This document shows, one piece after another, positions 5,051-39,162 of a stretch of 64,000 bases of DNA. A program made the position numbers and the translations under genes. Each line of letters begins with the position of its first letter. The stretch's first letter is position 1. Below the pieces are notes generated by a model. It was not told the DNA's origin and made no database searches. It was given only the letters and a program-made list of their open reading frames with translations. The DNA is from Candidatus Anderseniibacteriota bacterium (GTDB taxonomy: Bacteria; Patescibacteriota; Andersenbacteria; UBA10190). Location: assembly GCA_021414205.1 (NCBI GenBank), contig JAIOOW010000003.1:364365-428364 (forward strand). Reading direction: 5' to 3'.

Positions 5051-6109
5051 CTATTTAATTTTCGATCCATGAACGCTTGGCAAGAGCACTTCTTGTACTG
5101 CCTCAATATCTTCTAATACTATACCAGTCCCGCGCACGACTGCAGTAAGCGGATCGTCTGTAATGTGGGTCCTAATCTGGGTGGCATCTGTAATAACGTC
5201 CGCCAGGCCTCGTAGGAGCGCTCCCCCGCCTGCTAAATAAATACCCTGTTCGATAATATCAGACAATAATTCTGGTGGAGTTTCTTCAATACATGCCTTT
5301 ACCGCATCAACGATAATGGAGATGGAACGCTGCATCGCCTCTTTTGCCTGCATGCCGTTCATGATCACTTCTTTCGGAAGGCCAGTTACAAGATCTCGTC
5401 CGCGTATCGGAGCTTCGAGAATTTCCATCGTATCCATTGCAGACCCGATGCGAATTTTGATTTCTTCGGCAGTTCGTTCTCCGATTAACATATTAAAATT
5501 ATTGCGCGCGTATTGGATAATATTTTCGTTCAATTCGTCTCCGGCGATGCGCAATGTCCTATTTGCAACGATTCCCCCAAGTGAAATAACGGAAATCTCG
5601 CTCGTTCCTCCGCCGATATCGACGATGATATTTCCCGTAGCCTCATGAATCGGCAGTCGGGATCCGATGGCAGCTGCCATAGACTCTTCAATTAAAAACA
5701 CGGCTCGAGCCCCGGCACGCAAGCTCGCCTCTTCAACGGCACGTCGCTCTACTTCCGTTACTGATGATGGGATACCAATAACAACTCGCGGTCGTGGTAA
5801 AAAGTGGAATCCGTCTTCATGCACTTTTTGAATAAAATACGAAAGCATTTGCTCTGTTACTTCAAAATCAGAGATAACCCCGTGTCGCAATGGTCTGATC
5901 GCTACAATGTGCGAAGGCGTTTTACCAACCATGCGCTGCGCTTCTTTTCCAATAGCGAGCACCTCGTTTGTTTTTTTGTTCAGCGCAACGACGGAAGGTT
6001 CGTTAATAACAACGCCCTTTCCGCGCACGTATACGAGCGTGTTTGCCGTCCCCAAGTCAATTCCGATGTCTTGCGAGAATCGGCCAAAAAAGTTATTAAC
6101 AAATCCCAT
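5051..6109 (-). CDS. mreB: rod shape-determining protein MreB (actin homologue)
   Basis: 352 aa with actin-fold phosphate-binding motifs (IGIDLGTANT, DIGGGTS, YLAGGGA). Confidence 0.92.
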   Translation of the reverse strand: MGFVNNFFGRFSQDIGIDLGTANTLVYVRGKGVVINEPSVVALNKKTNEVLAIGKEAQRMVGKTPSHIVAIRPLRHGVISDFEVTEQMLSYFIQKVHEDGFHFLPRPRVVIGIPSSVTEVERRAVEEASLRAGARAVFLIEESMAAAIGSRLPIHEATGNIIVDIGGGTSEISVISLGGIVANRTLRIAGDELNENIIQYARNNFNMLIGERTAEEIKIRIGSAMDTMEILEAPIRGRDLVTGLPKEVIMNGMQAKEAMQRSISIIVDAVKACIEETPPELLSDIIEQGIYLAGGGALLRGLADVITDATQIRTHITDDPLTAVVRGTGIVLEDIEAVQEVLLPSVHGSKIK

Positions 6110-6116
6110 ACCAGTA

Positions 6117-7346
6117 TTATCCTTTCAGCCGTTCGATGCAGGCAGCAATATCTACCAATGACGTTTCTGCTTCCGTTCTGCTTTTTACCTCAACTTGGTC
6201 ACCCGTTTTTTTAGAAACAACTACGCGATATGGAATTCCTAATAAATCAGCATCTGAAAACTTTGCTCCGGGAGCAATATCTCTATCGTCATACAGAACC
6301 TCTATTCCCGATGTTTTAAGGGCAGTATATATTTCATCCGCTTTTCTCACCGTATCTTCATCGTCGCGATTTAGACCTGCTAAATACACAGTAAACGGCG
6401 CAATGCTTTTCGGCCAAATAATTCCCTTGTCATCATGGAATTTTTCTACGATGACGCCCATGAGGCGCGTAGTTCCAATTCCGTAGCTGCCCATGTATAC
6501 CAATTGCGGTTTTCCATTTTCATCCATATACGTGTAATTGAATGCGTTTGAAAACTTGATATTGAGCGGGAAGATATTTCCTACTTCGCTTGCCTTGTGC
6601 TTTTCATATGTCTTTCCTTCAGGCGCAATTTCTTCATTGTACGCAATTCCCGTTTCAGTATCGATACAAATAATATCCTCGCCCGCATCGCAAATAGTCT
6701 GAAATTCATGAGAGAACCCGGTAGTGAAATCTCCTCCCGATGCAAGAGTTATTTTAGTATCTTCTCCTAAGCCAACGCGTTCAAAAATGGTGGTGTATGC
6801 TTTTTTAACTTGCTCGTAATAAGTAAGCAGGTCGTCCTCGTCTTTGTGGAAGCTATACAAATCTTTCATGCGGAATTCCCGTCCACGCATAAGGCCTGAC
6901 TTTGCGCGTTCTTCGTTTCTGAATTTTGTTTGAATTTGATATACGGCAAATGGAAAATCTTTGTAACTCGATTTAGATTTTTGCGCAATCGGAGTAACGA
7001 GTTCTTCGTGGGTGCAGTTTAAAATGTACGATGCATCGTTGCGCTTGCGAGACGCGTCATTTGCCCCTCGAGCTTCGAGCAGTACGTCAATTTCTGTTCG
7101 CTTGGTTGTTTCCCAAAGCGATCGCGGAGAGAGCGCGGGCATGAGCATTTCCGTTCCGATAGTATCCATTTCCTCTCGGACAATAGCTTCTATTTTATTG
7201 AGTACGCGAAGACCAATGGGTAGCATGGTGTATACACCCGACATCGTCTGGTCGATGAATCCCCCTTTTTGCAGAAGTGTTGCGTTTATGGAATCAAATT
7301 CTTTTGCATCCTTATTTGTGTGAAGAAAAAACGAAGAGTATCTCAT
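6117..7346 (-). CDS. proS: prolyl-tRNA synthetase, short form lacking the INS editing insertion
   Basis: 409 aa with a class II core (FRNEERAKSGLMRGREFRMKD; GSYGIGTTRL) and a C-terminal anticodon-binding domain. There is no insertion domain between motifs 2 and 3. Confidence 0.85.
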   Translation of the reverse strand: MRYSSFFLHTNKDAKEFDSINATLLQKGGFIDQTMSGVYTMLPIGLRVLNKIEAIVREEMDTIGTEMLMPALSPRSLWETTKRTEIDVLLEARGANDASRKRNDASYILNCTHEELVTPIAQKSKSSYKDFPFAVYQIQTKFRNEERAKSGLMRGREFRMKDLYSFHKDEDDLLTYYEQVKKAYTTIFERVGLGEDTKITLASGGDFTTGFSHEFQTICDAGEDIICIDTETGIAYNEEIAPEGKTYEKHKASEVGNIFPLNIKFSNAFNYTYMDENGKPQLVYMGSYGIGTTRLMGVIVEKFHDDKGIIWPKSIAPFTVYLAGLNRDDEDTVRKADEIYTALKTSGIEVLYDDRDIAPGAKFSDADLLGIPYRVVVSKKTGDQVEVKSRTEAETSLVDIAACIERLKG

Positions 7347-7349
7347 AGA

Positions 7350-8438
7350 TTAAAAGTAATGATGAATATCTTTAAATGTTATAAATAGCATGAGTGCAAT
7401 TAACGCGATAAATCCTATAGTATGGGCGTATTGTTCAACGGAAGCAGTTCGTTTTCTGCCGACTAATTTTTCAATTCCTACAAACAGGATTCTCCCGCCA
7501 TCTAATGCAGGAATTGGCAGAATATTAATAATTGCCAAGTTAATACTGATCATCGCCGCAAACTCTAAGAAGTACGATAATCCCATTGCAACGGCCTGCT
7601 TTGTGTAAATTGCAATTCCGATCGGGCCGGTGAGTGCCTGGCCTACGGATTGATGTTCGAATAATTTCGCAATCAAGATTCCGAATTGGGAAAGTATTGT
7701 CCATGCCATAATGCCCGTTCGTTCAATGCCTTTAATTGGCGCTAGATAGATTGGGGATTTTTCTAATCCTGTTTCGCTCAGGCTAATCCCGAGCGCGCCT
7801 TGTCCTTCGGGAGGATTTACTCGAGGTGTTACGGTAACAGAAAGATCTTGGCCATTTCTATCTAGTTGCATCTGTATTTGCTTGCCCGCGTTGTCTCGTG
7901 TTATTTGCTGTACTGTAGTCAACGACGGGGCTTGGACATTGTTAATGCTTACAATTCGGTCATATACTTGCATACCCGCTTGCTGTGCGGGAGAATCTTT
8001 TGCAACTTCAACGGTATATGTTTTTTTATCGGTGAGCGTGCTCGCATTTTTTTCTGTTACCAACGTTGGCGCGCCGATTGCGCTTTCAACAGAAAGCAAT
8101 ACGACCGCAAACAGCAGGTTCATAATGACTCCTGCGGACAATATTGCAATTCTCCACCAAGCCGACTTGCTTGCGAAGCTGGTTTGCGATGGTTTTTCAC
8201 CATCTGGTAATTCTTCCATATTTTCCCCTTCTATCTTTACAAACCCGCCAATCGGGAAAAGATTAAGAGAGTAAAGCGTTCCGCGCCATGTTTTAGACAA
8301 TAGTCTTGGCGGAAATCCGAATCCGAATTCCTCAACTTTGCAACCTGCCTTTTTCGCAACAAAGAAATGTCCCCACTCGTGGACTAATACCAGAACCAGT
8401 AGCATTGCAATAAAAATCAATATAATCCAGATAGACAT
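7350..8438 (-). CDS. rseP: RIP site-2 metalloprotease RseP/M50 family with PDZ domain
   Basis: 362 aa with an HEWGH zinc motif near the N-terminal TM segment, a central PDZ domain, and a C-terminal LDGG motif. Confidence 0.85.
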   Translation of the reverse strand: MSIWIILIFIAMLLVLVLVHEWGHFFVAKKAGCKVEEFGFGFPPRLLSKTWRGTLYSLNLFPIGGFVKIEGENMEELPDGEKPSQTSFASKSAWWRIAILSAGVIMNLLFAVVLLSVESAIGAPTLVTEKNASTLTDKKTYTVEVAKDSPAQQAGMQVYDRIVSINNVQAPSLTTVQQITRDNAGKQIQMQLDRNGQDLSVTVTPRVNPPEGQGALGISLSETGLEKSPIYLAPIKGIERTGIMAWTILSQFGILIAKLFEHQSVGQALTGPIGIAIYTKQAVAMGLSYFLEFAAMISINLAIINILPIPALDGGRILFVGIEKLVGRKRTASVEQYAHTIGFIALIALMLFITFKDIHHYF

Positions 8439-8550: not shown

Positions 8551-9246
8551 TTATGTGCACGCGTGCTTGCGATGATTGCGTGCGTTGCCCCTATCCCTCC
8601 TCTTTCTCTTGCCTCGCCGTGGTCTGATGGCAGCTGGAGCGTGATGAGTGACGGGGCGAAATCGGGCGCAATACTCTACAAGCTTTCTTTCGAGATCTTC
8701 CGTTAGGCCGGAAGACCGCAAAAGATGACCATTCAAAGACTTTCTCCCTCGAGTTAAGAGTTCGAGCAATAGGTCCTCGATATGGAGCACGTTTCTGTGG
8801 TTTCTTATGGATCGCACAAATGCACAGCGAAGAATGTGCTGGAAATGTGGGGATCTTTCGCAAACACCTCGCGTTTCCTGATAAGCGGGGTAACCGAGTA
8901 TCTCGTACATTTTCCCAAGCAGGTCGGGAAAGTTGATACAAGGCAGCCGGCTTTTGTGGTAATCGGCGTGTTCCATAAAAACGGTCATAATTCCAAACAG
9001 TGCTTCAGTGACTCCAACTTTCTTATGTCGCTGAAACGTTGCCAGCTGATTCGAAATGTCGAGCGCGGTTCTTGCCTGTTGAGCAAGACGGATTCGCATA
9101 CAAGCGTCCTTTGGGTTTGAGAAAACGAACAACAATCTACCTACTTGCGGTATATCATATCCACCAGGCTTGTCAATGTATTTTGACAAAAGAAAACCCG
9201 GCCATGAAGGTCGGGTTGTGGAAGTGTGACTGGTGTCGGTTTTCAT
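8551..9246 (-). CDS. hypothetical protein (231 aa), GC-elevated, helical, Arg/Lys-rich C-terminus; contains R-x4-H-type motifs (RSIRNH) of uncertain significance
   Basis: Long ORF followed by its own terminator. No family recognised by eye. Composition is visibly more GC-rich than the flanking rseP and frr. Confidence 0.5.
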   Translation of the reverse strand: MKTDTSHTSTTRPSWPGFLLSKYIDKPGGYDIPQVGRLLFVFSNPKDACMRIRLAQQARTALDISNQLATFQRHKKVGVTEALFGIMTVFMEHADYHKSRLPCINFPDLLGKMYEILGYPAYQETRGVCERSPHFQHILRCAFVRSIRNHRNVLHIEDLLLELLTRGRKSLNGHLLRSSGLTEDLERKLVEYCARFRPVTHHAPAAIRPRRGKRKRRDRGNARNHRKHACT

Positions 9247-9253
9247 ATTGGCA

Positions 9254-9514
9254 TTACGGAATAGTAGTTGGCAGCTTTTTTGTTTGAGCGATAGTCATTG
9301 CGATTATCGCGGCACTGATTTGCCCCTTACAGAAGCGTAATCCATCAAATATGCTGAGCGACCAGAAGAGTGCTCCATCGTCAGTCTGAGCGAGCCAGCG
9401 CGCATCCTTCCTCCCCGTTTGCCTTGGGCCAGCTATTTGAATCATGTAGCCCTCGTTGATTGGGATAAATTCAGGAAAAATTACTACATGGCGACTAGTG
9501 CGTCTCCTCGACAT
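9254..9514 (-). CDS. hypothetical small protein (86 aa), first gene of the two-gene islet
   Basis: ORF ends 8 nt before the start of the 231-aa ORF. GAGGAG lies upstream of its ATG. No recognisable family. Confidence 0.4.
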   Translation of the reverse strand: MSRRRTSRHVVIFPEFIPINEGYMIQIAGPRQTGRKDARWLAQTDDGALFWSLSIFDGLRFCKGQISAAIIAMTIAQTKKLPTTIP

Positions 9515-9564
9515 GTTTTACTCCTCGGGAAAAGATCAAATAGTATCCGTCTTTCTGCGACAGT

Positions 9565-9596
9565 AAAAAAATACTTTATATAAGATTATTTGTCAA
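9565..9596 (-). promoter_or_regulatory. candidate sigma70-type promoter (TTGACA-17-TATTTT) for the 9514-8551 two-gene islet
   Basis: The reverse complement of 9591-9596 is TTGACA and overlaps the frr stop codon. After a 17-nt spacer comes tatttt, with GAGGAG-taa-ATG downstream. Confidence 0.3.
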
Positions 9597-28818: not shown

Positions 28819-30279
28819 CTATCTCGTTGGGTTTACTTGGATGTTTATCCTCTGCTGGATAGACGGGATGCTTTGGACCCAGAATGGCCATAATTTGAGG
28901 TCTACGGTTTGTGCGCCAGGCAAATTCTGGAGGTACGTTGTTGCGTCGTCTTTACTTCTCCCCACGAGCTTGTCTTTGAGGGTATCGAGGGAAACGTTCG
29001 GAATCGTTGAGTGGGTTACTCGGGCAGTGACGTTTGCAACGCCTTTATCCCAATCAACAGAATCAACGGACTTGGTGAACGATATTGGGCCGGGGAATAG
29101 CGTGGTGTTTGGAGGCAGATTAGAAGCAAGGGCTGATTGCAATACGCTATTTAAGGCGCTTTCTTGATATGCGAATACTCGAGCAGTGGCTGTTGCAGTA
29201 AACACGATGTTTTCTGCCTTATCCCCCGTTTTCTGTGCGGGAGCAAAAGAATCTAGTTTTATGTCCCAACTTTCCTCCATTAATGACCATCCGGACTGTA
29301 ATTGTGCTTTTGCGGCTTGCTCAACCTGGGCCTTTGCTTGTGCTTTTGCGGCTTCGTGGGCAGCGTCTAGGTCGCTATCCGCAACAACCTTCACTTGTTG
29401 ACCAGATCCGCCAGTAAATGCTGTTTCAACTTGCCCATACACAACTGCTTTTGCAGAGCCGTCTAATGCTGCAAAGTCGAGGCGTTGCGGCGTTAGATTG
29501 CCCTGGTCGCCAGCGTCTGCTGCCTCCACTTCTACTGTTGCGCTTGAAACGCTACTTCCTGAAGATGCGGGAATGATTGCTGGTGATTGCATGTAAAATA
29601 TTGCGCCGTCTTTGGTCGCAAGCCTGCTTTGCGCTTTAATTTTTTGCGTATCGAATGTTTTATTGAAAATTCGTACCGTTCCCTTGGCCTTCGTGCCAAT
29701 TGTTTGCGTCGTAGTTACGGGGGATCCGCCCTGAATTTGTACCTGTTGAGAAAATACTGTTCCAGGAACGGCATTCGGTACTGCCGCGGCATTTGTCGCA
29801 ATGCTTAATTTTTGATCAACTAAAAGAGGTGCTGTTTGGATATTGAGAGCAATGTTGGCAGATGGCAAGAATATAAACGCTGCAATTCCGGCAACAACAA
29901 GAACAACGGCGCTAAGCGCCATGGCAATTTTAGTCTCTTTTGTGCCTAATAGCATTGCTGGTTTGAATGTTTTTGTCTTCTTTATTTTTTTAGCTTTTTC
30001 CGTTTTTTTTGGAATTACTGCGAATAATGGTCGTTTTTCCATTGCGATAGCAGGTTCCTTTTTTGACTGCTTTTCTGGCACCATCTGCTTAGGAACATGT
30101 ACGGTAGTGATCGGAATTTGCGAGCCGGCAAAGCGTCGAACGGAGCTTTTTGCAGTCGGTTTTTTTGCTGCGATTTTGCTCGCATGCTTTTCGTATAGCT
30201 TCTTGGCTTCTTCTGGCAACTCTTCTGGAATATCCTTTCGAGAAAATGACGGTTTTTTGTTTGAGGTAATGTCGCGCAT
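28819..30279 (-). CDS. hypothetical single-pass membrane protein, lysine-rich cytoplasmic N-terminus, large Ala/Gln-rich extracytoplasmic domain
   Basis: 486 aa. It occupies the slot upstream of infA where secY-adk-map normally sit. No family recognised. Confidence 0.5.
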   Translation of the reverse strand: MRDITSNKKPSFSRKDIPEELPEEAKKLYEKHASKIAAKKPTAKSSVRRFAGSQIPITTVHVPKQMVPEKQSKKEPAIAMEKRPLFAVIPKKTEKAKKIKKTKTFKPAMLLGTKETKIAMALSAVVLVVAGIAAFIFLPSANIALNIQTAPLLVDQKLSIATNAAAVPNAVPGTVFSQQVQIQGGSPVTTTQTIGTKAKGTVRIFNKTFDTQKIKAQSRLATKDGAIFYMQSPAIIPASSGSSVSSATVEVEAADAGDQGNLTPQRLDFAALDGSAKAVVYGQVETAFTGGSGQQVKVVADSDLDAAHEAAKAQAKAQVEQAAKAQLQSGWSLMEESWDIKLDSFAPAQKTGDKAENIVFTATATARVFAYQESALNSVLQSALASNLPPNTTLFPGPISFTKSVDSVDWDKGVANVTARVTHSTIPNVSLDTLKDKLVGRSKDDATTYLQNLPGAQTVDLKLWPFWVQSIPSIQQRINIQVNPTR

Positions 30280-33574: not shown

Positions 33575-35488
33575 CTATATCTTTGGCGGTCGTGGCGGTG
33601 TGTAGTTTTGGATGTCGTCTATTTTTGATGGCGTGATCGGAGGAAGTGAATTCTTGGGCGAAGCTTGCTCTCGGGAATCAATCTTCGGCTTATTTGCATC
33701 AAGCAGCTTAGCGCGTTTGCGCTCGTCGTAACATTCTTTACAGAACACTTCTTTTTCCGGGTCCGGTTTGAACGGAACTTCCGTATGCTTTCCGCAATTA
33801 GAACAAGTAGCCGGATATAGTTTTACTGAGGGTTTATGCTTTTCTTCTGAATGCGTGCGCGTGTTGTTAGGTGGTACGGCAGGTGAAGTTGGGGCATCGT
33901 CAGTAGCATCGTCGCTCGTATCCTCTTTTCTGCCTAACAGTGCTGAGAGATCCGTAATCATTTCTTGTTTTGCAGGGGCGATGACAATATCTTCCAATTC
34001 ATCCGGTTTTTCTTGAACTGGTGTGAATGCTTTTTTATCTACGTGCTCTTGTCGCGGTTTATTTTCTTGCTTTGTTGGTGTTTGAGTGTTTGGAACATTT
34101 GATGCAGGTCGATTAGGTGTTTGTCGCGATTGAGATTGATTATTTTGCGGTTGCCCTTGCTTGCCAAGAAAAATTTGCGGCTTAGGGGACTGTTCCCCGT
34201 TTTCTTGAGCTCCTAAGGTTGAGCTGCTCCATCGTGCAATTTTTTCCTCGATTTCTTTTCGAGGCGATCCGTATCGTTCTCTCGAAACGCGTAATACTTT
34301 TTCTTTACTATTATATGTTTCTGCTACTGGTGCAATCGTTTCCATAGAGAACGGAGCGCTCGTAGCGCCTTTTATCATGAGTTTGATATACGCATTATAT
34401 TTATCCAAGTTCACTAAATCCGTTTGGGTAAAGTACGGCATAAATTCTTTTTCGAGATATTCCGCATCGAATGCACCCACGCGGAACGAGATTATTGTTC
34501 CTACGTTTCCGAATACGGCATCACGCACCACCTCTTCCATCTGCGTAATGTATTGATGAGCGATTATTAAATTGAGGCGATACTTTCGAGCCTCGGAAAG
34601 AATTGTTGCGAATGATTCGGTAGCGAAATTTTGAAATTCGTCGACGTATAGATAGAAGTCTCGTCGCTGCGCTTCCGGAATACTTGCGCGATCCATGGCT
34701 GCAAGTTGGAGCTTGGTAATAAGCATGGCGCCGAGCAAAGCGGAGTTATCTTCTCCGATACGTCCTTTTGAAACGTTAATAAGAAGAATTTTCCCGTTAT
34801 CCATAATATCCTTCATGTCGATCGTGCTTTTCGGTTGTGCGACGATATTGCGGATAATGGACGAACTTAAGAATTGCCCGACTTTGTTTTGGATCGGAGA
34901 AATTGCCTCGCTTCTGAATCGTTCGTTGTAATTGGCGAATTCGTTTACCCAAAAAGCTTTTACTACTGGGTCCGTGATTGTTTCTACCACTTTTGAGCGA
35001 TAGCTTTTATCCGCAAGCATGCGCATGATGCCAAGCATTGTTGAGGACGGGTAATCAAGAAGAGCTAAAATAACATTTCGGAGAATGTATTCCAATCGCG
35101 GCCCCCAAGAATCTGCCCAGATTTTTTTCAGCGAGCTTACTAGCCCTGATGCTACTAAGTATTTATATTGCGGATCAACGGATTCGAGCGGATTAAATGC
35201 AACAGGAAAATCCACATCCGCGGGGTCAAAGTACACAACGTCATTAATGCGTTCCGGTGGAATGATATCCAAAATCTTTTCAGCAACGTCTCCGTGAGGG
35301 TCTACAAGCGCAAGGCCGCGCCCAAGCTTAACGTCCTGAATAATCATATTTTCGAGCAACGTCGTTTTGCCCACGCCCGTTTTTCCAATTACATATACGT
35401 GGCGCCTGCGATCATCGGTATAAATACCAAATGGTTTTCGTTGATGACGAAAGTTCGTTTGTCCTACTACGGTAATTTCATCAAGCAT
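33575..35488 (-). CDS. DUF87/HerA-FtsK-superfamily P-loop ATPase (type IV coupling-protein-like) with low-complexity linker and C-terminal C4 zinc ribbon
   Basis: Walker A GKTGVGKTT is followed by the DUF87-typical LVDPHGD. The Walker B motif is LYVDEFQNF. The C-terminal ~200 aa are Pro/Gln/Asn/Lys-rich and end in CSNCGKH…x17…CKECY. I place the start at the internal Met, overlapping the upstream gene by 8 nt. Confidence 0.7.
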   Translation of the reverse strand: MLDEITVVGQTNFRHQRKPFGIYTDDRRRHVYVIGKTGVGKTTLLENMIIQDVKLGRGLALVDPHGDVAEKILDIIPPERINDVVYFDPADVDFPVAFNPLESVDPQYKYLVASGLVSSLKKIWADSWGPRLEYILRNVILALLDYPSSTMLGIMRMLADKSYRSKVVETITDPVVKAFWVNEFANYNERFRSEAISPIQNKVGQFLSSSIIRNIVAQPKSTIDMKDIMDNGKILLINVSKGRIGEDNSALLGAMLITKLQLAAMDRASIPEAQRRDFYLYVDEFQNFATESFATILSEARKYRLNLIIAHQYITQMEEVVRDAVFGNVGTIISFRVGAFDAEYLEKEFMPYFTQTDLVNLDKYNAYIKLMIKGATSAPFSMETIAPVAETYNSKEKVLRVSRERYGSPRKEIEEKIARWSSSTLGAQENGEQSPKPQIFLGKQGQPQNNQSQSRQTPNRPASNVPNTQTPTKQENKPRQEHVDKKAFTPVQEKPDELEDIVIAPAKQEMITDLSALLGRKEDTSDDATDDAPTSPAVPPNNTRTHSEEKHKPSVKLYPATCSNCGKHTEVPFKPDPEKEVFCKECYDERKRAKLLDANKPKIDSREQASPKNSLPPITPSKIDDIQNYTPPRPPKI

Positions 35489-36776
35489 ATGGAAGGTTTG
35501 CAGGAGGGTTTTTATGACCAGCCTTTGCCCGATCAACTCCAGGGGTTGTTACATACTTCACTGGGAAATGGTATATGGTTGCCAGCTCTTCAGCATTCAT
35601 AATCTGTCCGGAATCTGTTCCAAAAAAATCCCGCCACTGAAAATTCAGCAAAGCATTGCGTTCTTTTAACCATCTGCGCCGATCTTTCATGAAAAATCCA
35701 GGACCGTTCGTCTTTGTTTCTTTGTCTGGTGAGAAAGAGTTTAAATGCGCTGCCGTAAATTGCTTGAATACGCCGAATCCGCGAGAAATATTTGGCTTTT
35801 TTAATTGTCCTACCGGTGCAATATGCACGACGCGTACTTTCGTTTTGTATCCGTTGCTGGAAATTTTTTGTAAAATAGACTTCATTTTTGCGTCATCGAC
35901 AGGATTGAAGAAGCGAAGAACTTTCTCTTCTTTTTTTGTTTCTATCTCAATAGGACCCTTAAACACTGCTTGAAAGAATTCGCTCGGAAGCGCGGAGATG
36001 AATTCTTTTGCGTTGTCCCACATACCCGGCTTTGGTTTTGAAGCTTGTCCTGAAATTTCTGCAATTTTTTTCTCTCCTCTTTTCTCCCACTTTTTAATAT
36101 CGCTTCCGGAGATGGGGCGAACAAGCACCTGGACCCAGAATTCCTCGCCTGGCTCCACGTTTGTGAGTGTTTCCAAAATGATCTGCATCGGATCAACAAA
36201 CGGAATATTTTCCGCTAAGCTTGCTTCGAATTCCTTGTATGTCTTTATAGGAAGGATGTCATCCTCCGTAAGAATAATATCGGCTCCCCACATCTCGAAT
36301 TTAGTTCGCAAATCCTCAACATTATATCGCTGAGTATAATCTTCTACTTCCTGGATATCTGCCTTTGGGTATTGCGCGTATATAATTGCCTCAAATAATC
36401 GTCTATGTGCGGTTGGTATAACGATAATAAACTTTGCTGATTGTTGGGTGCAGTATATCTCGAAGCTGGCCCATGCTTCTAGATATCCGTCAAAATATTT
36501 TTCGTTGATATCGGGGCCCTTGTGTATGCCTCCCATAACTTCAAAGATAACTTCCATAGAGCGAGGCGTTTCCTCCGTTTCTTCGGGGAGAGTGATTTGG
36601 TAGAATGTCCATTCGATGGCGCTCACATAGTCCACCATTTTTAGGAGGAGATATGTTTTCCATGCGATCCACATAACCATCCAGACCACAAGAAGCCATC
36701 CGAATGTGAGGATAGTCGGCCCAAATTGCTGAGCAAAATCAGAGAAGGTGTACTCCATTCCCCTATTGTACTGCAA
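35481..36776 (-). CDS. hypothetical membrane protein (2 N-terminal TM helices plus ~370-aa soluble domain), translationally coupled partner of the DUF87 ATPase
   Basis: 431 aa with an N-terminal hairpin TM (…ILTFGWLLVVWMVMWIAW…). No family recognised. Confidence 0.55.
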   Translation of the reverse strand: MQYNRGMEYTFSDFAQQFGPTILTFGWLLVVWMVMWIAWKTYLLLKMVDYVSAIEWTFYQITLPEETEETPRSMEVIFEVMGGIHKGPDINEKYFDGYLEAWASFEIYCTQQSAKFIIVIPTAHRRLFEAIIYAQYPKADIQEVEDYTQRYNVEDLRTKFEMWGADIILTEDDILPIKTYKEFEASLAENIPFVDPMQIILETLTNVEPGEEFWVQVLVRPISGSDIKKWEKRGEKKIAEISGQASKPKPGMWDNAKEFISALPSEFFQAVFKGPIEIETKKEEKVLRFFNPVDDAKMKSILQKISSNGYKTKVRVVHIAPVGQLKKPNISRGFGVFKQFTAAHLNSFSPDKETKTNGPGFFMKDRRRWLKERNALLNFQWRDFFGTDSGQIMNAEELATIYHFPVKYVTTPGVDRAKAGHKNPPANLPYA

Positions 36777-36791
36777 ATTTTCGTTTAATGC

Positions 36792-37811
36792 TTACGCGAG
36801 CGTGTATAAATCGTTTTCTGCTTTTTTGAACTTCGTATTGTTCTGCAACGATAGCAATACCGTATTTTTCTTTACCATTCGCTGTTTGAGCACTGCTTGA
36901 AGAAGCTCGTCTTTAGACATCGGCTTTCCTGTTTCTTTCAAGATGGAAATCAGCACGTCGGCAACAGTTCCTGCCATAAAGCCCCATTCTTTGAGTCCGT
37001 ACAATCCTCGTCCAACTAATACGAATCGGCCATCTTTAATAAGTTCGTTATGAACGGTTTGTGGGTTTGCTTTCTTGTGATCGAAGCTTGCTTGGTTAAT
37101 CATTTCGGTGATTTCTCGGAAATGCGCAGGTTTGCCATTGCGTCGAAGAACTGCGAATGCTTTGTCGCCTACACCGCGAGGTGAAGTTTCTGCCCAGCCG
37201 ATAAGTCCCCAGTCCCCGAATGCTGTAGGAGAAATATTCTTGCTTGCGTGCAGAGCTGCATGAATATGCGTATCTGGCACTACTGTTCCCTGTGCTGCAG
37301 AACGGATTTCGTTTACGAGTTGCTCGATTGTAATAGGTGCGTTGTTTTTCTTGAGCACTTCCATTGCCATAATAACGATTTTCTCAATATTTTCATGGAG
37401 TGATGCTGGGTGTTGCCAATGAGTTTCAAAGAGAGAGGTTGGCGCAACAGTCGTAAATGATGGAAGAATCGTTAAGAAGAAATGAATAGTATGAGCATCA
37501 ACTGCCTGACCTGTTCGTTCTTGAATGACATTCACTGCGTGAGTTTCGGACATTAATCCGCCGTGCTCTGCAAAAATATCTGCAAGCATCTGCTCTGCTG
37601 AAGCAAGAAGGTCTCGCATCGAGGTAAGCTCTTTTTTTGCATTTGCTTCAATTTGTCGAACGCGCTCTCGAGTAATTCGGTACTCTTTTCCAATGCTTTC
37701 TAGTGTTTCTTTTTCTTCTTTTCCAATACCAAAACGACGGACAATAATATCGCGAGAGCGAGTGTCGAGGCGCGCAAGCAAATCTTCGGCTGTCTTAGAG
37801 AAATTAATCAT
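36792..37811 (-). CDS. sigma-70 region-4 HTH protein fused to three HARE-HTH-like repeats (putative RNAP-associated factor)
   Basis: The N-terminus (…RDIIVRRFGIGKEEKETLESIGKEYRITRERVRQIEANAKKEL…) matches sigma70 region 4. It is followed by three repeats ending in GDWGLIGW, DGRFVLVGRGLYGLKEW and NDLYTLA, resembling the HARE-HTH of RNAP delta subunit (RpoE). Confidence 0.6.
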   Translation of the reverse strand: MINFSKTAEDLLARLDTRSRDIIVRRFGIGKEEKETLESIGKEYRITRERVRQIEANAKKELTSMRDLLASAEQMLADIFAEHGGLMSETHAVNVIQERTGQAVDAHTIHFFLTILPSFTTVAPTSLFETHWQHPASLHENIEKIVIMAMEVLKKNNAPITIEQLVNEIRSAAQGTVVPDTHIHAALHASKNISPTAFGDWGLIGWAETSPRGVGDKAFAVLRRNGKPAHFREITEMINQASFDHKKANPQTVHNELIKDGRFVLVGRGLYGLKEWGFMAGTVADVLISILKETGKPMSKDELLQAVLKQRMVKKNTVLLSLQNNTKFKKAENDLYTLA

Positions 37812-37917
37812 ATATACCTTTTTAGCATATCATGTAAATATTGTCAATATAGCACTAACAACTTATGACTATACTACGTATTATTTGATATGTCTAGTAT
37901 GGCAAAGTTGGATACTG
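37812..37917. promoter_or_regulatory. promoter/operator region upstream of the sigma-r4/HARE gene with two TTGACA-containing palindromes
   Basis: tgtcaacttttcttgaca (TGTCAA-N6-TTGACA) lies at ~37907-37924 and atattgtcaatat at ~37842-37854. The minus strand reads TTGACA-17-TAAAAA followed by aaaggtatatATG. Confidence 0.35.
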
Positions 37918-39162
37918 TCAACTTTTCTTGACAATGGCTCGCATTCTGCCATCGAGCGTACCGGCACTGAAAATAATTGCTATACAAGGCTTTTTTTGAG
38001 CTATTGACTCGGTAAGTTTCGTATCATCGAATATGCATTCTGCGGGCGTATTTTTAGCCTCAATGGCATCCTGTAATCTGTAGGCGTCTTCTAATGACTG
38101 CTCGTCTCGGCCGGTGGGGATAAACGGTTTTGTGATGATTACTTCGTCTGCTTGAGCCAATGCATCGGCGAAATTGTCAAAAAACGTATGAAGTCGCTTC
38201 GGCATATGGGCTTCAAATACCGCAACAATATGTGCTCCTGGCGCAAATTCGCGCGCTCCTTGCAATGTTGCTTGTATTTCTGCGGGATGATGGCCGTAAT
38301 CCGATCGAATTTCAACCTTCCCAACAGTTCCGAGTAGTTCAAATCTGCGCGCTAGCCCTGGGAATGTTGTAAGTGATGTAATTGCCCGTTTTCTGTCTAC
38401 TCCCAATTTTTCTGCCAGCGCAACGGCGAGGCTGGCATTTTGCCGCATGTGTTTGCCTGGCAAAGGAACGCGAAGCTTTTCTTCCTCAGATGTTGGAATG
38501 ATGTGCGTATCTACTGGCCATGAAATATTCATATGCGCACTATGTTCTGTTTCGGGAACAAAAATAGAACCTCCTGGCTTGAGTGATTGCATGAAATGTT
38601 CGTACGATTTCTCCACATCCGCTAATCCGGTAAATGCGTCGGGGTGGTCGTAGTCAATCGATGTAATGATGATGTCGTTCGGCGCGAGTGCGTAAAAGTG
38701 ATTGCGGTATTCATCTGCTTCTACTACGAAATACTTTCCTTTGCCGTATCGTGCATGCTTCCCTGGTAGGCTTGGCATTGAGGCGCCGACTACAACTGTC
38801 GGATCGAGTCCCGCTTCAATGAGAATGTGCGCAAGGAATGCGGTAGTAGATGACTTACCGTGCGTGCCGGTAACAGCAAGCGTGTGATAGTGGCTTGTAA
38901 TATGCCCTAGAAATTCATGATAGGCCGATTCTGTTTTCCCAGTCTTCCTGAATGCGGCGCGCAAAGGATGCTCAAACGGTGCGGCATCCGTATATATGAG
39001 CGATGTAATTTCGGGAAGCTTTTCAAGAACTTCTGCTTGTGTGTATTTCGAAAATTCTGGATTATCGTCATATCCAACAACGGTCATGCCGTCTTGTTCT
39101 GCAAGGTATGCAACTGCGCGCATGCCAGCTCCGCCAATTCCAACAAAAAGTAATGTTTCCAT
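37918..39162 (-). CDS. murC: UDP-N-acetylmuramate--L-alanine ligase
   Basis: 414 aa; Mur ligase N-terminal Rossmann (GIGGAGM), GTHGKSSTT P-loop, and C-terminal domain. Confidence 0.85.
   Translation of the reverse strand: METLLFVGIGGAGMRAVAYLAEQDGMTVVGYDDNPEFSKYTQAEVLEKLPEITSLIYTDAAPFEHPLRAAFRKTGKTESAYHEFLGHITSHYHTLAVTGTHGKSSTTAFLAHILIEAGLDPTVVVGASMPSLPGKHARYGKGKYFVVEADEYRNHFYALAPNDIIITSIDYDHPDAFTGLADVEKSYEHFMQSLKPGGSIFVPETEHSAHMNISWPVDTHIIPTSEEEKLRVPLPGKHMRQNASLAVALAEKLGVDRKRAITSLTTFPGLARRFELLGTVGKVEIRSDYGHHPAEIQATLQGAREFAPGAHIVAVFEAHMPKRLHTFFDNFADALAQADEVIITKPFIPTGRDEQSLEDAYRLQDAIEAKNTPAECIFDDTKLTESIAQKKPCIAIIFSAGTLDGRMRAIVKKS

Follow-up and report, generated by a model that had tools for sequence, protein, structure and literature searches.

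What might a protein do that carries the -35-reading end of a primary sigma factor, without the core-binding and melting regions of one, and continues into a row of winged helices related to the delta subunit of RNA polymerase (RNAP)? The question is raised by a gene in a 64,000-nucleotide stretch of contig JAIOOW010000003.1 of Candidatus Anderseniibacteriota bacterium (this whole stretch is referred to below as the window). The organism belongs to the Candidate Phyla Radiation (CPR, Patescibacteria), a large share of bacterial diversity. The gene encodes 339 residues, comprising a sigma-70 region 4 (sigma4) and four winged helices (WH1-WH4), and its product is called here the sigma4-WH protein; it is followed by the genes of a DUF8128 protein and of an ATPase resembling type IV coupling proteins (T4CP). 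A sequence-only reading of the window had proposed an RNAP accessory or decoy factor, which stays plausible. The follow-up analysis presented here leads to a somewhat different suggestion, held tentatively: the protein would be an essential, transcription-associated -35-binding factor that modulates promoter use by the sigmaA holoenzyme, being neither a sigma factor nor an orthologue of delta.

Domain architecture of the sigma4-WH protein

Homologues align to the 339-residue protein from residue 1-2 through its end, covering 97-100% of the query. The AlphaFold2 model, for which 71 homologues served as input, is compact and consists of five domains (mean predicted local distance difference test score, pLDDT, 94.1; predicted template modelling score, pTM, 0.81), with sigma4 followed by four winged helices of the H-H-H-beta-beta type and with the first helix of WH1 being a continuation of the C-terminal helix of sigma4. 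Conservation was assessed in 148 divergent representatives, most of them less than 45% identical to the query. Near-invariant in this set are the helix-turn-helix (HTH) of sigma4 (TLe.IG..y.iTRERvRQIe) and helix 3 with the wing of WH3; the conservation of WH1 and WH2 is poor. The net charge in the same representatives is about +4 for sigma4 and about +5 for each of WH3 and WH4, compared to about -2 for WH1 and -1 for WH2.

The N-terminal part is genuinely a region 4 of the primary-sigma type; that it is a sigma-70 region 4 had been recognized from the sequence. Pfam Sigma70_r4 matches residues 11-60 (E 1.5e-12, 47.3 bits at a cut-off of 24.1, with 47-51 bits across the whole-protein and separate-domain scans), PDB profiles of RpoS, SigA, and RpoD region 4 match at E~1e-14, and Foldseek against the PDB superimposes the model on region 4 of sigma70, SigA, and RpoS with a root-mean-square deviation (rmsd) of 0.8-1.6 A and about 40% identity. 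In the Pfam scan, neither Sigma70_r2 nor Sigma70_r3 was matched even at E<=10, and of the NCBIfam sigma models (RpoD/RpoS/RpoH) only the last ~60 positions match, scoring 22-56 bits against cut-offs of 240-800, that is, 5-15 times too low. The lack of region 2 means that the protein is not a sigma factor proper, in agreement with the earlier reading. The recognition motif TRERVRQ is invariant in 71 close homologues and, in the form TRERvRQ, at least 90% conserved in the 148 divergent representatives. By ungapped alignment, T47-Q53 correspond to T583-Q589 of E. coli sigma70, a segment in which R584, E585, R586, R588, and Q589 contact the -35 element. Because these recognition residues are unchanged, we infer that sigma4 reads TTGACA-type hexamers, and with TRERVRQ so conserved it probably binds TTGACA-like DNA. 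No second gene with a sigma region 4 was found in the 64-kb window.

The assignment of the C-terminal repeats to the HARE-HTH (delta-like) winged-helix family, proposed from the sequence, is supported by Pfam, TIGR04567, and hhalign, and the profile searches did not assign these repeats to an unrelated winged-helix family. On the full protein, Pfam HARE-HTH matches at E 2.2e-16 in two stretches, the best of which is 217-276, and NCBIfam TIGR04567 (RNAP delta, low-GC) reaches 56.6 bits against a cut-off of 42, with 216-277 as its best stretch. When segments were scanned separately, residues ~212-283 (WH3) gave 36.5 bits with HARE-HTH and were the sole segment above the 25.9-bit cut-off; residues 277-339 (WH4) gave 23.6 bits, just under it and over the N-terminal half only; residues 141-215 (WH2) gave no HARE-HTH match, only weak matches to TFIIE_beta and DUF4777, and WH1 had no Pfam match. 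Conservation, too, is highest in WH3 (TvHNELI.D.rfvLvGRG.YaL.eWGy, 21 positions at least 90% conserved in the representatives), which phmmer aligned with the S. aureus RNAP delta subunit (8x6g_E, E 0.012), the DGRF...GL..W wing included. In hhalign comparisons of sub-alignments of the 148 representatives, probabilities were 88% for WH2-WH3, 93% for WH2-WH4, 90% for WH3-WH4, 88% for WH1-WH4, and 42% for WH1-WH2, and no winged helix was related to sigma4. Judged by these profile comparisons, WH2 and WH4 are internal homologues of WH3, and WH1 is more divergent. Of the three HARE-HTH-like repeats described in the sequence-only reading, all are retained as WH2-WH4, and the motifs quoted for them lie where it had placed them (FGDWGLIGW at 198-206, DGRFVLVGRGLYGLKEW at 260-276, ENDLYTLA at 332-339); the count itself was too low, as the AlphaFold model adds a fourth, divergent winged helix. 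The best Foldseek match for the winged-helix part was the C-terminus of SelB (1lva, E 1e-4). The C-terminus is a folded winged helix (pLDDT ~90) which is basic and has no acidic tail, and for this reason the protein is not a delta orthologue; the C-terminal tail of delta, which is long, intrinsically disordered, and polyanionic, has a charge of -47 (PMC7749165).

Distribution of the family, genetic data and a tentative role in transcription

The architecture had been called unusual, and this description does not hold. A word-indexed protein search returned at least 7,520 significant homologues, and an exhaustive search over 50%-identity representatives returned 581 clusters at E<1e-30, with alignments over residues ~6-339. 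The best 120 homologues are nearly all full-length, and their named sources are all Andersenbacteria or other Patescibacteria. A one-genome-per-species scan gave 67 loci from many CPR lineages, with full-length relatives in Uhr-, Buchanan-, Doudna-, Niyogi-, Kaiser-, Nomura-, Moranii-, Falkow-, Taylor-, Gracili-, Peri-, and Saccharibacteria; three Saccharibacteria orthologues (L046, L047, and L052) share ~31-34% identity with the protein of the window. Members share full-length collinear homology over ~330-400 residues, with sigma4 preceding the winged helices, and the 339-residue protein is a typical member of this large, uncharacterised, chromosomal, and CPR-wide family. The domain combination is already catalogued, in Pfam labels, in product names, and in the annotation by the authors of the Southlakia study discussed below. 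Among the product names are “sigma factor-like helix-turn-helix DNA-binding protein,” “HTH domain-containing protein,” and “RNA polymerase delta subunit” (the latter from JGI). The window itself is an ordinary CPR chromosome (rpoA, secA, secDF, frr, PBP2, dcw genes, alaS). An origin of the gene from a mobile element was considered and rejected: a scan of viral contigs yielded phage sigma factors and one distant full-length relative only.

A few proteins with deviating architecture were encountered. In a Dehalococcoidia metagenome-assembled genome (locus L064, 597-kb contig, 5458-7599), a 713-residue relative, 25% identical over residues 16-339, has Sigma70_r4 in the middle of the protein, with a HARE-like GIRGVYALKEWGY wing as well as a zinc ribbon of the topoisomerase type; this locus yielded no DUF8128 homologue. 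The combination of sigma4 with HARE-type domains therefore also occurs outside the CPR, in another architecture. In P0233 (659 residues), SecF is fused to the sigma4-WH protein, but it was not accepted as a Rosetta-stone fusion, as it is likely a read-through from secF, a frequent upstream neighbour. In P0168 (800 residues), a complete sigma factor (regions 2-4) and an entire sigma4-WH protein form one reading frame; this was not taken as a functional link either, since it is a single case and rpoD is a neighbour in 0 of 67 loci.

Genetic data are available for the orthologue in Southlakia epibionticum. SEML1_0294 (349 residues, PF04545 at 27-72 and PF05066 at 225-283) is labelled “RpoS,” lies directly upstream of SEML1_0293, is listed in the domain table with a tri-helical domain and three winged domains, is flagged as a member of a core, Patescibacteria-enriched family, and is left undiscussed in the text of the paper (PMC10633639). 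In transposon sequencing (Tn-seq), its score was essential (ES) at each of the three time points (class I), with insertions decreasing from 24 in input DNA to 1-2 after selection; SEML1_0063, a separate RpoD, is essential as well, whereas SEML1_0293, the fused DUF8128-T4CP gene, is non-essential (NE), yet its reads drop from 5817 to 1372 (PMC10633639). The dispensability of SEML1_0293, set against the essentiality of SEML1_0294, implies that the essential role of the family is independent of the ATPase. Essentiality in Southlakia also fits a core role in transcription better than that of a dispensable decoy.

How the protein might act in transcription can be outlined as follows. As a copy of primary-sigma region 4, sigma4 would read TTGACA-type hexamers while being rigidly joined to the four winged helices. 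The basic and extremely conserved WH3 and WH4 would contact RNAP or the adjacent DNA, and the variable WH1 and WH2, acidic to neutral, could serve as spacers or as modules for protein contacts. Positioned at -35-like elements, the protein would tune promoter use by the sigmaA holoenzyme. It might compete with region 4 of sigmaA, be it for the hexamer or for the beta-flap, or else bridge the polymerase to a second hexamer. That TTGACA is in use at CPR promoters, to judge by the hexamers counted upstream of 65 orthologues (see below), speaks for the proposal. It would be co-transcribed with the membrane-anchored DUF8128 protein and the T4CP-like ATPase, and probably would interact with them too. 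Several points weigh against this proposal. The site of delta on RNAP (PMC7749165) lies a long way from the beta-flap, the docking place of sigma4, and therefore the compact 339-residue protein is unlikely to be at both sites together. Moreover, the activity of delta depends on its acidic tail, which the sigma4-WH protein does not possess; the near-universal operon link with DUF8128 points to a membrane machine and not to RNAP; and essentiality is known from one species only, Southlakia, where it was scored in co-culture.

Operon partners, upstream TTGACA elements and competing explanations

The strongest contextual signal for the gene is its operon with DUF8128 and the T4CP-like ATPase (Table 1). 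Open reading frames (ORFs) were called in the fetched loci and compared with the window genes, 57 loci having enough downstream sequence. A DUF8128 homologue is the next gene downstream, on the same strand, in 53 of these, and an ATPase homologue follows in about 20 of 43. The intergenic gap is ~15-34 nt. The upstream neighbour varies, being murC in the window, secD-secF in 19 loci, and leuS in 23; with DUF8128 constant and the upstream neighbour changing, the pair evidently moves as a unit. This synteny strongly suggests a physical or functional link between the sigma4-WH protein and DUF8128/ATPase.

The main rival explanation, built on this link and in our estimation rather unlikely, is that the protein is a DNA-recognition or adaptor subunit of a DUF8128 and T4CP-like membrane ATPase, in which the five HTH-type domains would bind DNA, sigma4 on TTGACA-like hexamers, and would pass it on to, or load, a hexameric motor of the VirB4/VirD4 family for DNA uptake, transfer, or chromosome handling. 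Analogies are provided by relaxosome accessory proteins docking on T4CPs, by the winged-helix gamma domain of FtsK, and by the winged HTH of Streptomyces TraB. The retention of DUF8128 over deep CPR lineages next to a changing upstream neighbour and the short intergenic gap are what such a subunit would predict; roughly half of the loci, however, lack an adjacent ATPase gene. The DUF8128 protein, whose PF26449 label is also carried by its close relatives, was modelled by AlphaFold (pLDDT 81) as one long N-terminal transmembrane (TM) helix and a cytoplasmic domain, and Foldseek pairs the latter with the TrwK/VirB4 N-terminal domain (E 1e-5, probability 1.0). This fold, and the fusion of DUF8128 to the ATPase in Saccharibacteria (~900 residues), speak for the adaptor, but a single TM helix per subunit gives no obvious DNA channel. 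The ATPase is matched by TrwB_AAD_bind, TraG-D_C, T4SS-DNA_transf, and zf_Tbcl_2 in Pfam, by TraD, CD1115, TIGR04272, and weakly CedD in NCBIfam, and by TrwB and DotL in the PDB. The kinship with TrwB, TraD, DotL, and, weakly, the DNA-importing CedD is again in line with a DNA motor, yet the scan of neighbouring genes showed no relaxase and no other genes of a type IV secretion system (T4SS). Judging from the predicted folds, DUF8128 and the ATPase look like a split VirB4/T4CP-type ATPase, and this pair may account for “orphan T4CP” genes across Patescibacteria. A survey found 5,713 VirD4-like genes across 2,918 genomes of Patescibacteria, most of them at a distance from virB4, and put forward exaptation as an explanation; a sigma4-WH/DUF8128 neighbour is not mentioned there (PMC12102498). 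These thousands of orphan, possibly exapted genes count in favour of the adaptor. The Southlakia data indicate, however, that an adaptor function cannot be the sole or the main role, as the fused DUF8128-ATPase is non-essential and the sigma4-WH protein essential.

A separate observation concerns the C-terminus of the ATPase (33575-~33900, minus strand), where a CxxC-x17-CxxC treble-clef zinc finger (TIGR04272/zf_Tbcl_2) comes after a long low-complexity linker rich in Pro, Gln, and Ser. Such a finger is unusual for a coupling-protein-like ATPase and could be a nucleic-acid- or partner-binding module.

The second alternative, which we regard as improbable, is that of an ordinary sequence-specific regulator, which would autoregulate the operon, and perhaps a small regulon, via promoter-overlapping TTGACA palindromes. 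The palindromes named in the sequence-only reading are indeed present upstream (37838-37850 and 37916-37933), and three copies of TTGACA lie within 92 bp upstream of the gene, which is what autoregulation would call for. This abundance is local: the window holds 19 copies of TTGACA on both strands as compared to 37 +/- 6 in shuffled sequence, with all 100 shuffles higher, a scarcity consistent with selection against spurious -35 elements. The exact TGTCAA-N6-TTGACA arrangement occurs twice in the window and in none of 100 shuffles, both times at promoter-like positions, and may represent an operator particular to this genome or a bidirectional arrangement of -35 elements. The upstream regions of three independent close relatives (85-86% protein identity) were also aligned. 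The 32-nt block at 37820-37851 is 100% identical in them and the flanking intergenic sequence varies, the promoter of one relative (L081) reads TTGACC-17-TATATT, and the arms of the N6 palindrome are invariant around a freely changing spacer (GAAAAG, TAATAA, or ACAATC). Conservation of the arms and the perfect block would suit an operator; however, one arm reaches into the coding sequence of murC, over its final codons, and the TGA stop of murC lies in the other arm.

Data from more distant loci speak against the palindrome as the basis of autoregulation. Upstream of 65 orthologues, sense-strand TTGACA was counted 40 times versus 4.4 expected (9-fold enrichment), compared to 11 times on the antisense strand, and a properly spaced TTGACA-N16-18-TAnnnT was found in 22 of the 65 loci. 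Given the sense-strand enrichment and the spaced TAnnnT, the upstream TTGACA is mostly explained as a sigmaA-type promoter belonging to the gene itself. None of 66 distant orthologues has TGTCAA-N4-8-TTGACA upstream, and 719 kb of CPR loci contain no copy of the N6 palindrome, despite the invariant recognition helix; an operator common to the family was rejected on these grounds. Moreover, class I essentiality would be surprising if the protein were a local regulator acting on a non-essential ATPase. The autoregulation suggested from the sequence is therefore not well supported, since the hexamers are first of all a promoter and the N6 palindrome is kept in close relatives only, where it may be a lineage-specific operator.

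Other occurrences in the window are recorded here for completeness. The second exact copy of the palindrome (TGTCAATGTATTTTGACA, 9171-9188) is situated just downstream of an intrinsic-terminator-like hairpin, and a copy with one mismatch (1993-2010) lies at the PBP2 gene's 3' end, with a promoter-like site TTGACC-17-TACACT downstream of it. An 86-residue ORF (9254-9514, minus strand), for which no family assignment was obtained, has on one side a promoter-like TTGACA site that overlaps the stop of frr (9591-9596) and on the other a strong hairpin resembling a terminator (~9190-9225). A noncoding RNA at 9250-9560 was considered and rejected, as Rfam found nothing and the region holds this ORF; over the whole 64 kb, on both strands, no Rfam family reached its gathering score. 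By alaS, a 486-residue ORF (28819-30279, minus strand) has a weak Baseplate_J-like match at the cut-off (E 1.5e-4, 21.6 bits), which is odd among housekeeping genes.

It can also be imagined, as a speculation with a low chance of being right, that the sigma4-WH protein, DUF8128, and the T4CP-like ATPase constitute one CPR-specific machine, in which the -35 reader would target the membrane motor to promoter-like TTGACA sites and would have an essential role in transcription as well. If true, promoter recognition would here be coupled to a membrane translocase, a link not described before, which might serve, e.g., the handling of chromosomes or the exchange of DNA by ultra-small episymbionts.

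It is highly improbable that the protein is a true RNAP subunit equivalent, i.e., a non-canonical sigma factor or the CPR orthologue of Firmicutes delta, for although some annotations say “RpoS” or “RNA polymerase delta subunit” and TIGR04567 is formally above its cut-off, sigma regions 2 and 3 remain undetected in the Pfam scan, the sigma models match region 4 only and far under their cut-offs, the C-terminus is a basic winged helix where delta needs its -47-charge tail, and Southlakia has a separate RpoD.

Table 1. Coordinates of the sigma4-WH gene, its domains, upstream elements, and operon partners in the window
Feature	Position	Strand	Remarks
sigma4 + 4x winged-helix gene, 339 aa, ATG start	36792..37811	-	stop codon 36792-36794; ORF listing, full-length homologues, AlphaFold
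Residues 1-65, sigma-70 region 4	37617..37811	-	helices 4-13, 17-27, 37-44, 48-63; recognition helix T47-R-E-R-V-R-Q53
Residues 66-138, WH1, divergent winged helix	37398..37616	-	DSSP H66-82, H89-100, H106-115, E120-122, E131-133
Residues 139-210, WH2, HARE-HTH-like, FGDWGLIGW wing	37182..37397	-	DSSP, hhalign
Residues 211-279, WH3, bona fide delta-like HARE-HTH	36975..37181	-	Pfam HARE-HTH, TIGR04567, phmmer
Residues 280-339, WH4, probable HARE-HTH	36795..36974	-	Pfam HARE-HTH below cut-off, hhalign
Proximal conserved block CTATATTGACAATATTTACATGATATGCTAAAA, 32 nt, candidate promoter/operator/5' leader	37820..37851	-	TTGACA 37842-37847 within 13-bp palindrome
13-bp palindrome ATATTGaCAATAT	37838-37850	.	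inside proximal conserved block
Best sigma-70-type promoter, TAGACA-17-TATAGT	37868..37896	-	10/12 consensus matches; position kept in relatives
Inverted repeat ATTGTCAA-N6-TTGACA (TGTCAA-N6-TTGACA)	37916..37933	.	overlaps murC 3' end
DUF8128 (PF26449), 431 aa	35481..36776	-	likely true start 36758, 18 nt downstream; downstream of sigma4-WH gene
VirD4/TrwB/TraD-like (T4CP-like) P-loop ATPase, third gene	33575..35536	-	start codon uncertain; Pfam, NCBIfam, PDB profiles

Significance and comparison with known systems

The family of the sigma4-WH protein is universal in the CPR, enriched in comparison with other bacteria, and, in the only available genetic screen, as essential as RpoD. The findings correct the labels “RpoS,” “delta subunit,” and “HTH protein,” since the protein is not a sigma or delta orthologue, retains an intact -35 reader, and travels with DUF8128 and the T4CP-like ATPase. 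Two concrete, testable hypotheses follow for an essential CPR gene, and thousands of “orphan” VirD4-like ATPases in Patescibacteria gain a possible partner. A literature search on the HARE-HTH/Sigma70_r4 combination, on CPR sigma and delta, on DUF8128, and on the NCBI product name found nothing relevant. The four-winged-helix parse, the invariance of the -35 reader across the family, and the near-universal pairing with DUF8128 appear to be new, if incremental, points, and so do the VirB4-NTD-like (N-terminal domain) fold of DUF8128 and the contrast between essential and non-essential genes within the operon.

When compared to known systems, the protein shares with RpoD, SigA, and RpoS the recognition residues TRER(V/I)RQ of region 4, which are identical in an ungapped HTH alignment made by hand against the E. 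coli sequence. The sigma factors differ in having regions 1.2-3, responsible for core binding and -10 melting, none of which was detected in the sigma4-WH protein. By manual alignment, the basic “590s” patch of sigma70 that serves activators is not conserved, and the C-terminal helix of sigma4 runs into a winged helix, unlike in sigma factors. As to Firmicutes delta (RpoE), WH3 aligns with its N-terminal domain, and WH2 and WH4 are homologous repeats of WH3; however, HARE-HTH is N-terminal in delta and internal and repeated here, and the sigma4-WH protein has four winged helices, a net basic charge, an extra sigma4, and a CPR instead of a Firmicutes host.

In 2012, Aravind and Iyer reportedly described bacterial HARE-HTH domains fused to the HTHs of sigma regions 3/4 and to the helix-hairpin-helix (HhH) of the alpha subunit, and are said to have predicted that these proteins inhibit RNAP-promoter binding; the Pfam entry PF05066 reportedly carries a similar prediction. 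The likeness to these fusions consists of HARE-HTH together with a sigma-type HTH and of the predicted RNAP-related role, which is in essence what the sequence-only reading had proposed, whereas the HhH of the alpha C-terminal domain and region 3 are undetectable in the sigma4-WH protein. The four-winged-helix array at the C-terminus of SelB (1lva, 2uwm), with 12-14% identity and an rmsd of 12-17 A, has the repeat architecture alone in common, and it differs by binding the selenocysteine insertion sequence (SECIS) RNA and by having no sigma4. In TrwA, TraM, PcfF, FtsK (gamma), and TraB, an HTH-type DNA-binding module is likewise encoded with, or fused to, a motor of the VirD4/FtsK superfamily; these proteins are not homologous to the sigma4-WH protein, no origin of transfer (oriT) or relaxase lies nearby, and it is the CPR protein that is essential and not the motor. 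SEML1_0294 of Southlakia, finally, has the same Pfam pair as the window protein, belongs to the same length class (349 versus 339 residues), and occupies the same position directly upstream of DUF8128/T4CP, the difference being that DUF8128 and the ATPase are one fused gene in Southlakia and that the protein is mis-annotated there as RpoS.

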